This document shows, piece by piece, positions 45,109 to 45,763 of a stretch of 64,000 nucleotides of DNA; positions within the stretch are counted from its first letter, which is position 1, and each line of letters opens with the position of its first letter. The stretch lies in assembly GCF_003019675.1 (NCBI RefSeq), contig NZ_CP028105.1, positions 386,282-450,281 on the forward strand. The letters run 5' to 3'. The position numbers and the translations under genes were made by a program. This DNA comes from Fusobacterium ulcerans (GTDB lineage: Bacteria; Fusobacteriota; Fusobacteriia; Fusobacteriales; Fusobacteriaceae). The notes under the pieces are model-generated. The model was given only the letters and a program-made list of their open reading frames with translations, made no database searches and was not told the DNA's origin.

Positions 45109-45609
45109 CTAATTTGTCTTTTTATATTCTTTTGCTATTTTTTCCAACAAAATAAAATCACAGCATCTACTCCAAAAATGGCTTTTTTCTCTTTTTGATG
45201 TTATTTCTTTATACAATCTTTCAGCTGTTCTATAAATTTTTTCTTTGTTAGAACTTACATTACACCAAGAAATCTGATTTATTAATAGGTTCTTATATTT
45301 AATATCCATTTCTAAATTTATATCTTTTTCAAAATGCAATTCTTTTGGAACTGGAAACATATTATTGAAATTTATAGCTCCTAATAATCCGTTATCTATT
45401 TTAAGAAAATCTATATTATTTTTCATTTTTTTATGTTTTTCTTTTGGTGAAGTTAAAGGAATTATGTAATCAAGATTATCTATTTTAAGAACTATTCCAA
45501 TAAATTTTCTATTTGATTTAGAATTGATGCTATCCATTATTTTTTTTTCAACTTTTTGAATATATTCCATATAATCCAAATCTACTTCATAAAATCTTAA
45601 TCTTTCCAT
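45109..45609 (-). CDS. toxN: Type III toxin-antitoxin toxin, ToxN/AbiQ-family endoribonuclease
   Basis: 166 aa from ATG 45609, preceded by an AAGGAG RBS; the ORF-track start at 45708 is an artefact running into the repeats. ToxN hallmarks are present: FYEV..Y.EYI, FIGIVLKI....YIIPLTSPKEKH, NFNNMFPVP, AERLYK. Confidence 0.8.
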   Translation of the reverse strand: MERLRFYEVDLDYMEYIQKVEKKIMDSINSKSNRKFIGIVLKIDNLDYIIPLTSPKEKHKKMKNNIDFLKIDNGLLGAINFNNMFPVPKELHFEKDINLEMDIKYKNLLINQISWCNVSSNKEKIYRTAERLYKEITSKREKSHFWSRCCDFILLEKIAKEYKKTN

Positions 45610-45626
45610 AAAATTTCTCCTTAAAA

Positions 45627-45658
45627 AAAGAAGAGTGATAAAACACTCTTCTTTATAC
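45627..45658 (-). terminator. Intrinsic terminator between the ToxI repeats and toxN
   Basis: AAGAAGAGTG-ataaaa-CACTCTTCTT hairpin followed by a T-run on the minus strand. ToxIN/AbiQ loci have a terminator at this position. Confidence 0.6.
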
Positions 45659-45763
45659 TTTTTTAACTCCCACTCGATGGTAGGGTACACCGCTTTTTTA
45701 ACTCCCACTTGATGGTAGGGTACACCGCTTTTTTAACTCCCACTTGATGGTAGGGTACACCGC
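45659..45763 (-). ncRNA. toxI: ToxI-like antitoxin RNA: three tandem 35-nt repeats
   Basis: TTTTTTAACTCCCACT(C/T)GATGGTAGGGTACACCGC x3 at 45659-45693, 45694-45728 and 45729-45763. The repeats lie immediately upstream of toxN on the same strand. Confidence 0.75.

Follow-up and report, generated by a model that had tools for sequence, protein, structure and literature searches.

The chromosome of Fusobacterium ulcerans carries a type VI-C CRISPR (short palindromic repeats, clustered and regularly interspaced) locus in which toxIN, a type III toxin–antitoxin (TA) cassette made up of the RNA antitoxin gene toxI and the toxin gene toxN, stands between two CRISPR arrays. We examined this locus in a stretch of 64,000 nucleotides (nt) of contig NZ_CP028105.1 (positions 386,282 to 450,281), referred to here as the window. 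Read along the minus strand, the order of features is leader 3, array 3, cas13c, leader 2, array 2, toxI, toxN, leader 1 and array 1 (Table 1). Mini-array 2, whose leader 2 is short, lies directly upstream of the toxI promoter, and 498 nt separate the cas13c stop (46303) from the -35 box of that promoter. The nesting of toxIN in the Cas13c locus is a physical one.

An earlier, sequence-only reading had described three tandem 35-nt repeats, an intrinsic terminator, an AAGGAG ribosome-binding site and a ToxN/AbiQ-family open reading frame (ORF) of 166 amino acids (aa) on the minus strand, and had called them a complete ToxIN/AbiQ-like type III system between mini-arrays 1 and 2, close to a Cas13 gene. 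The coordinates bear out these parts: the architectural features of such a system that can be read from sequence are all present, the arrays are real and the effector gene lies about 0.5 kb away. The interval that had been given for the module, 45109-45763, takes in toxN and most of toxI but stops 5 nt short of the end of the repeats and so also misses the promoter.

The antitoxin gene contains three copies of the unit AAAAAGCGGTGTACCCTACCATC(A/G)AGTGGGAGTTA (minus strand). Tandem Repeats Finder reports an array of period 35 with 3.2 copies, 98% matches and a score of 215, the sole strong array in the region; a repeat search also shows three in-register copies, and the window contains the 27-nt core of the unit three times, where 100 shuffles give an expectation of 0.00. 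The array ends 48 nt ahead of the toxN ATG, on the same strand. The intrinsic terminator between the two genes folds with a free energy of -14.3 kcal/mol (z -3.24; 1 of 200 shuffles was equally good) and is kept in three related loci (L001, L005 and L009; loci other than the window carry L numbers). The promoter ahead of toxI is a perfect sigma-70 consensus, the only 12/12 match in a 6.4-kb promoter scan (44000-50400), and the same promoter precedes toxI in L001, L009, L135 and L136. From this consensus match, a single promoter upstream of toxI is predicted to drive toxI and toxN as a bicistronic operon. A 199-aa ORF with a GTG start (45109-45708), present in a mechanical listing, extends back across the terminator and the repeats and is an artefact. 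The dimensions of the cassette fall inside the ranges of the toxIN family, 31-62-nt repeats in 1.9-5.6 copies with a mean toxin length of 168 aa (PMC3401426). A Rho-independent palindromic terminator between repeats and toxin is itself a criterion for type III TA systems (PMC5086642).

ToxN matches the Pfam family PF13958 (ToxN_toxin) over the full profile (1-159 of 159; E 5.1e-48; 163.7 bits, the cutoff being 25), which settles in the affirmative the profile check that the sequence-only reading had proposed for the 166-aa protein. It also matches the PADLOC AbiQ model (3.9e-38), and no NCBIfam model matched it. The protein is identical to WP_005981365.1 (AVQ26922.1), named 'type III toxin-antitoxin system ToxN/AbiQ family toxin [Fusobacterium ulcerans]', and the accession of Cas13c, AVQ26923.1, directly follows it in the same record. 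Its residues R34, T53, S54 and K56 align with catalytic K33, T52, S53 and K55 (Pectobacterium and E. coli numbering). The TSxK motif is present and Arg replaces K33, as in E. coli clusters 4 and 5; this exchange is a known natural ToxN variant, and the residue roles come from the same source (PMC8860590). S54, K56 and R34 are invariant among 30 ToxN relatives, and the ratio of non-synonymous to synonymous divergence (dN/dS) of toxN is 0.11 between the window and L001.

Among four solved structures, the nearest is ToxN of B. thuringiensis (4ATO; E 9e-20, 74.7 bits), followed by ToxN of E. coli (7D8O; E 7e-13, 52.5 bits) and of P. atrosepticum (2XD0; E 2e-12, 51 bits), with AbiQ of L. lactis the most distant (4GLK; E 1.9e-11, 47.7 bits). 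AbiQ/antiQ (L. lactis pSRQ900) belongs to the same ToxN/AbiQ superfamily as the F. ulcerans toxin. The sequence-only reading gave the antiQ unit the same length of 35 nt and had taken the 35-nt toxI unit as a sign of closeness to AbiQ. That argument fails, since the period of the toxI class spans 32-41 nt, a toxN of 80% identity has 36-nt units and the B. thuringiensis toxin is nearest; AbiQ was rejected as the closest subfamily because its bit score lies below those of the three ToxN structures.

To place toxI among its relatives, we drew on ToxN loci gathered from metagenomes (80 loci) and viruses (12 loci) and by exact-protein look-ups. Tandem repeats of 32-41 nt lie 32-95 nt upstream of toxN in 91 of the 106 ToxN loci, and nearly all of the 91 have the toxI unit AAAAAGCGGUGUACCCUACCA(N2-6)AGUGGGAGCUA. 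Folding of the repeat, which had also been proposed, gave a divided answer. By minimum free energy (MFE), neither a single unit nor the whole array folds better than shuffles (z about 0). An H-type pseudoknot model of two 3-bp helices, S1 (G8-C20, G9-C19, U10-A18) and S2 (C14-G30, C15-G29, C16-G28), is 97.8% paired over the 23 distinct types of the core toxI alignment, which was anchored by hand. C15-G29 becomes U-A in 8 of the 23 types and G8-C20 becomes A-U in one, giving 9 compensatory cells; none of 500 shuffles was as good, and slid controls reached at most 56.5% paired. The MFE hairpin, 77% paired with no compensatory change, was rejected as contradicted by the covariation and beaten by the pseudoknot model. 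Covariation across the toxI class supports an H-type pseudoknot as a candidate fold.

Outside its two helices, the model has an A-rich tail on the 5' side and a further tail on the 3' side. In the two crystallised complexes, from Pectobacterium and from Bacillus, the ToxI RNA is an H-type pseudoknot from which two single-stranded tails extend (PMC5086642). The A-tract between toxI units is nearly invariant, and by likeness to the cleavage site of B. thuringiensis ToxN, AAA|AA (PMC8860590), we infer that toxI would be cut within it. An Rfam scan of 43000-51000 (E <= 1) found nothing for toxI or for the CRISPR repeat, its lone match being a chance one to NBR2. Together, the toxI homologues, about 90 in number, make up a conserved class of antitoxin RNA for which Rfam has no model.

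Two loci have an additional, orphan toxI unit, which lies close upstream of the leader belonging to the array ahead of cas13c (L001:4620-4736 and L005:5108-5224). A TTGATA-17-TATAAT promoter of its own drives just one 35-nt repeat in this predicted unit, the terminator is the same and toxN is missing; its substitutions preserve S2 pairing (C-G to U-G or U-A). A search with the toxI core found no orphan copy in the window. The orphan might be what is left of a second toxIN, or else serve as an additional source of antitoxin or as a promoter that feeds the CRISPR leader.

In such repeat-rich CRISPR surroundings, what looks like toxIN might be a decaying relic or a chance resemblance, that is, a degenerate CRISPR remnant or simple tandem duplication beside a dead ToxN; indeed, toxN is broken in four related loci (L005-L008), and two of these (L006 and L007) have one toxI unit left. 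The toxI units of the window, however, run head to tail without spacers, and their sequence bears no relation to that of the 29-nt CRISPR repeat, on which grounds a degenerate CRISPR array was rejected. The ORF is full length with its catalytic residues and a low dN/dS, the promoter is a perfect consensus, and in about 90 unrelated loci toxN has an RNA of this class beside it. For this window, the sequence features leave the relic explanation effectively refuted.

The effector gene is called cas13c by PADLOC and by NCBIfam (NF038193, VI_Cas13c; 1137.8 bits), and its product is identical to WP_106878539.1. Both HEPN R-x4-H motifs lie in invariant columns (R321..H326 and R832..H837), so that two HEPN motifs and flanking CRISPR arrays, the context of a type VI-C system, are both in place. 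The three mini-arrays have in common a 29-nt repeat, GACTAAATCCACRTAAGTGGAATTTAAAC (minus strand), with a period of about 66 and unique spacers of 36-39 nt. The repeat folds as a hairpin (z -3.9) and ends in AAAC; this end and the degenerate trailer repeats fit transcription of the arrays on the minus strand. The six spacers matched neither the window, the Mu-like prophage and toxIN included, nor any of 50,697 phage records, and thus give no evidence for self-targeting or anti-toxIN spacers.

How old is the association? A profile search of genome contigs with a Cas13c alignment retrieved distant Cas13c loci only, and loci of the F. ulcerans group were retrieved by exact-protein look-ups. Among the latter, toxIN occupies an identical junction, after the trailer of the downstream array, in the window, L001, L002, L005-L008, L135 (a metagenome-assembled genome assigned to F. 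ulcerans) and L136; in a second F. ulcerans strain, the accessions of ToxN and Cas13c are likewise adjacent. Each of the three subclades of the Cas13c tree contains toxIN-positive loci, and toxIN-negative loci are nested among these. Synonymous divergence (dS) between the window and L001 is 0.33 for toxN and 0.28 for cas13c. A recent horizontal insertion of toxIN into this strain was rejected because the two dS values are similar and toxIN is present in all three subclades.

Further signs of age come from L135, which has the array-2 trailer spacer TCTTTAAGTTGTTCAAGTCTATAATTCATAAGTTCC and the degenerate last repeat in common with the window (L135:4877-5461 against 45862-46021). Its array has six repeats, four more on the leader-proximal side than array 2 of the window. 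From the common trailer and the longer array it follows that the junction is old and that array growth continued at the leader end, and the L135 array suggests continuing spacer uptake. Among the genes beside cas13c, neither cas1 nor cas2 is apparent, no search aimed at these two genes having been made.

Syntenic loci without toxIN include L025 (Fusobacterium sp. THCT13E1, CP156723), L027 and L033, with a single downstream array, and L035, with two downstream arrays and a leader copy between them (L035:13781-14454). The L035 arrangement looks like an empty toxIN site. Because its array is split by a terminator and a leader copy without toxIN, leader–array duplication is independent of toxIN. 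The array and leader repeats that flank toxIN would make its loss easy by homologous recombination. The most parsimonious account has toxIN captured a single time, long ago, then diverging together with cas13c under purifying selection and being lost at least twice.

The persistence of toxIN between recombination-prone direct repeats over a dS of about 0.3 bears on another explanation, in which toxIN is an addiction module guarding CRISPR-cas13c. Its deletion would free stable ToxN and kill the segregant, selecting against array loss in the manner of CreTA. Type III TA systems can stabilise replicons (PMC5086642), and TA RNA pairs that safeguard CRISPR-Cas are known (PMC12737573). The same set of loci speaks against such a role, with at least two independent clean losses inferred (one in the L025/L027/L033 clade and one in L035) and with toxN inactivated by a nonsense codon elsewhere without loss of the locus. 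Moreover, a deletion between array 2 and array 1 takes out toxIN and not cas13c, leaving the key gene unprotected. We hold a guarding function to be doubtful; toxIN may, as a TA module, incidentally stabilise the Cas13c locus.

Beyond this group, ToxN and Cas13c occur apart. The survey of related Cas13c loci that the sequence-only reading had called for found toxIN in F. ulcerans-type loci and in 0 of 16 more distant ones (L010-L024, from Cetobacterium, Anaerosalibacter, Fusibacter, Tissierella and others, and Cetobacterium L041), where no ToxN lies within <=10 kb on each side as far as the contig reaches. Likewise, about 90 other ToxN loci have no Cas13c within their flanks. The linkage is conserved across neither the effector subtype nor the TA; it is confined to F. 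ulcerans-type loci and lost in four of them (L025, L027, L033 and L035). An 80%-identical toxIN cassette with the same promoter, terminator and ribosome-binding site adjoins a tRNA U5-methyltransferase gene, with no CRISPR, and ToxN relatives of 57-59% identity lie amid VirB4, TraG, MobA and resolvase genes of conjugative elements. Plasmid records with ToxN relatives number 212, of which 168 are mobilizable or conjugative (the best match, 53%, is on an F. polymorphum plasmid), and there are four such phage records. Its occurrence, together with that of its relatives, on plasmids, on conjugative elements and at a housekeeping site marks the cassette as a self-contained mobile unit, probably of defence and addiction.

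We therefore return to what the locus most probably is. The evidence supports a complete ToxIN/AbiQ-family type III TA between the CRISPR arrays of a Cas13c locus, and we assign a probability of roughly 0.85 to the view that it is an intact, self-contained and autonomous TA and abortive-infection system that works by the mechanism of its family and has long been co-inherited with cas13c. In that family, ToxN cleaves the toxI precursor to monomers, which inhibit ToxN in a closed RNA–protein complex (PMC5086642; PMC10853763), and the system fires once the supply of toxI stops (PMC10853763). We infer from these relatives the toxicity of ToxN, its neutralisation by toxI, the cleavage site, the trigger and the role in defence at this locus. 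A strong constitutive promoter would transcribe the three toxI repeats, and the intrinsic terminator would pass only a fraction of transcripts into toxN, keeping antitoxin RNA in excess. The ToxN endoribonuclease would cut the precursor in the conserved A-tract, and each 35-nt product would form a small H-type pseudoknot with single-stranded tails; these pseudoknots would bind and block ToxN in a closed RNA–protein ring. When toxI synthesis halts, for example on phage shut-off of host transcription, the unstable toxI RNA would decay, and freed ToxN would cleave A-rich sites in cellular and phage RNA, aborting the infection. On the evolutionary side, a single capture in the ancestor of the F. 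ulcerans-type VI-C loci would have placed toxIN at the trailer of the array that lies downstream of cas13c. It would have been co-inherited with cas13c since then, while remaining removable by recombination between the flanking array and leader copies.

Several observations weigh against this view. The codon for Trp115 of toxN, otherwise invariant (WCN motif), is a stop in L005-L008 (L005:10343-10345), four contigs from different samples in which cas13c is intact and which have 2, 1, 1 and 3 toxI units, respectively; with this nonsense codon in one sublineage, toxIN is dispensable at least there. Tyr29 of Pectobacterium ToxN falls opposite an alignment gap in the F. ulcerans protein. For the antitoxin, just two of the six pseudoknot pairs covary, and four divergent unit types had their 3' register chosen by hand. 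Finally, long co-inheritance under purifying selection would be expected, too, if toxIN had a role linked to Cas13c.

That last point leads to a functionally integrated system, in which the collateral RNase activity of activated Cas13c, or the collapse of transcription and translation that follows from it, would deplete labile toxI, so that ToxN deepens or prolongs the dormancy in an abortive response, possibly with an array-keeping addiction effect in addition. ToxIN would then be a true accessory module of F. ulcerans type VI-C, analogous to HicAB with Cas13a. Several features are in keeping with this: cassette and effector are on the same strand, at the same junction in every toxIN-positive F. 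ulcerans-type locus; toxIN is found in all three Cas13c subclades, with toxN and cas13c at similar dS and a toxN dN/dS of 0.11; and L001 and L005 carry the extra solo toxI unit before the cas13c leader. A terminator scan predicted none between array 2 and the toxI promoter (45862-45805), so pre-CRISPR-RNA transcripts could enter toxI. ToxIN is known to respond when toxI supply stops (PMC10853763), and cross-activation has been reported for Cas13a and HicAB (PMC13448076). The distribution of the cassette points the other way. Four loci whose Cas13c is 86-94% identical (L025, L027, L033 and L035) lack toxIN and yet have intact cas13c and arrays; toxN is a nonsense pseudogene beside intact cas13c in L005-L008; none of the 16 more distant Cas13c loci has ToxN, and no Cas13c lies near any of the other ToxN loci, roughly 90 in number; and the same cassette stands alone elsewhere. 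Functional coupling between toxIN and Cas13c is possible, and we consider a true accessory role quite unlikely. Most likely, toxIN acts independently of Cas13c as a second RNA-level layer of defence.

The module itself is known. For F. ulcerans ATCC 49185, a single toxIN is recorded by Blower et al. (2012; PMC3401426), which means that it was catalogued before Cas13c was recognised. The systems of B. thuringiensis pAW63, P. atrosepticum pECA1039 (2XD0/2XDB/2XDD) and E. coli (7D8O) have the same promoter–toxI–terminator–toxN layout, a toxin of the same PF13958 family (full-length matches, E 9e-20 to 2e-12) with the TSxK motif and A-rich unit junctions, and the F. ulcerans RNA is compatible with an H-type pseudoknot between single-stranded tails. 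In contrast to the known plasmid ToxIN, the F. ulcerans cassette is chromosomal and lies between CRISPR arrays, and its 35-nt toxI unit is unlike P. atrosepticum ToxI in sequence.

Its position in a type VI-C locus is undiscussed in the papers searched and belongs to a known kind of arrangement. To our knowledge, Cas13c is the least studied Cas13 subtype. The sequence-only reading knew of no description of a type III TA coupled physically to a type VI system. Our literature search found no paper that mentions Cas13c together with ToxN, and a survey of Fusobacterium CRISPR systems reports no accessory proteins known for Cas13c (bioRxiv 10.1101/2022.01.21.477265). A TA interleaved with cas13 and CRISPR arrays is now on record: the integrated CRISPR-Cas13a-HicAB system of Leptotrichia, termed CCTA (Nat Commun 2026), has a CRISPR array between hicA and hicB (PMC13448076). 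With this precedent, the adjacency of toxIN and Cas13c is less unprecedented than had been assumed. In both cases a TA is interleaved with CRISPR arrays and cas13, arrays lie on both sides of the effector, and toxin and Cas13 are both RNases. The two differ in that CCTA joins Cas13a to a type II protein antitoxin, HicB, and a CRISPR RNA (crRNA) antitoxin, whereas F. ulcerans joins Cas13c to a type III RNA antitoxin with its own repeats; cross-activation is experimental for CCTA, whereas the F. ulcerans locus is known here as sequence. Unlike CCTA, too, the F. ulcerans TA is a self-contained cassette that also occurs outside CRISPR loci and is often lost. The CCTA study surveyed type I-III TAs beside all Cas13 genes, and its text names neither ToxN nor Cas13c (PMC13448076).

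Other small RNA-based TAs in or beside CRISPR-Cas loci are CreTA (a type VIII RNA TA in type I-B loci) and the type I TAs of Clostridioides difficile, for which a locus-keeping role is proposed. The CreTA antitoxin is crRNA-like and Cascade-dependent, whereas toxI requires no Cas protein; and in place of the ToxN RNase of F. ulcerans, they have CreT, an RNA, or a small membrane peptide as toxin. New here is the finding that all three F. ulcerans-type Cas13c subclades have toxIN at one and the same junction, co-diverging with cas13c under purifying selection, with losses in some lineages and a nonsense codon in another.

Smaller elements surround the main features (Table 1). A short, conserved promoter–terminator unit precedes each long CRISPR leader copy. 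In it, a -10 box (TATAAT) is followed after some 50 nt by a terminator hairpin of 13 bp, AGAGAGATATCTG...CAGATATCTCTTTTTTT. Copies lie at 50127-50231 in the window and at L001:4750-4865, L001:10555-10675 and L025:9290-9400, with a degenerate copy at 44981-45075 (minus strand), of which 44981-45026 is homologous to 50124-50169. The unit is 97.8% identical between the window and L001 despite differing flanks and resembles a small RNA gene of about 75 nt; it showed no Rfam match, no ORF and no covariation outside the terminator. A long hairpin terminator, ATCACCCGTGAGG...CCTTGTGGGTGAT, has two minus-strand copies, one after array 1 (44352-44385) and a degenerate one between toxN and leader 1 (44961-44899), and the same element follows the array in L035.

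Beyond array 1 lie genes for a 285-aa protein with no family match, a DnaC/IstB-like ATPase (NF005992, 190.8 bits) and an HTH_17 protein. Related proteins are at the same place in L025, and L005 and L027 have unnamed and HTH_17 proteins with no called ATPase; the three genes may be the remnant of a mobile element beside the CRISPR locus. A Mu-like transposable prophage (about 9291-39844, minus strand) lies about 2 to 5 kb beyond array 1 and is absent from syntenic L025. On the other flank, upstream of the cas13c locus, L001 and L005 have genes for a Na+/H+ antiporter, an M20 peptidase, an amidohydrolase and a BTAD protein, and the window has DUF6138 and merR genes. The Na+/H+ antiporter gene of the window is at 2772-4160 (compared region 1568-4160), about 40 kb off on the other side of the cas13c locus. 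These differing upstream flanks place the cas13c locus at a rearrangement boundary, marked by the orphan toxI.

Table 1. Features of the toxIN–Cas13c locus and its surroundings, in window coordinates.
Feature	Position	Strand	Details
toxIN promoter	45805-45777	minus	-35 TTGACA 45805-45800; 17-nt spacer with extended TG; -10 TATAAT 45782-45777
toxI antitoxin gene	45768-45658	minus	3.2 tandem 35-nt units
toxI units	45768-45734, 45733-45699, 45698-45664	minus	plus partial unit AAAAAG
Intrinsic terminator between toxI and toxN	45654-45623	minus	11-bp stem, 45654-45644 with 45637-45627; 6-nt loop; T run 45626-45623
Ribosome-binding site AAGGAG	45622-45617	minus	7 nt upstream of toxN ATG; direct sequence reading
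toxN	45609-45109	minus	ATG 45609; stop 45111-45109; 166 aa
Terminator hairpin downstream of toxN	45013-44987	minus	terminator scan; inside degenerate promoter–terminator unit copy
cas13c	49656-46303	minus	1117 aa from true ATG 49656; terminator 46228-46201
CRISPR mini-array 3	49846-49686	minus	upstream of cas13c; leader 50113-49849
CRISPR mini-array 2	46021-45862	minus	repeats 46021-45993, 45955-45927; degenerate trailer repeat ~45890-45862
CRISPR mini-array 1	44626-44464	minus	downstream of toxN; 3 repeats, 2 spacers; leader copy 44893-44629; terminator 44385-44352
merR-like gene	51192-50380	minus	start of locus in transcription order
Promoter-plus-terminator unit	~50231-50127	minus	between merR-like gene and leader 3
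285-aa protein, DnaC/IstB-like AAA+ ATPase, HTH_17 protein	42109-44021	minus	after array 1
MuA-type transposase	35937-37826	minus	Mu-like prophage
MuB-like ATPase	34959-35927	minus	Mu-like prophage
Terminase	25908-27254	minus	Mu-like prophage
Portal	24303-25796	minus	Mu-like prophage
Major head protein	21796-22908	minus	Mu-like prophage
Baseplate protein	12282-13436	minus	Mu-like prophage
Holin	9291-9779	minus	Mu-like prophage

A type III TA kept at one junction of the type VI-C locus, under purifying selection, throughout the divergence of the F. ulcerans-type loci offers a cheap natural test of whether RNA damage by Cas13 can trigger a second RNase toxin, an idea that has recently received support from Cas13a-HicAB. 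If the two systems were integrated, F. ulcerans would have a two-stage RNA-level abortive response, with the first accessory module of Cas13c and the first type III TA wired to a CRISPR effector. If they are independent, the locus would still show clearly how a CRISPR trailer can take up a defence cassette that repeat-mediated recombination later removes.

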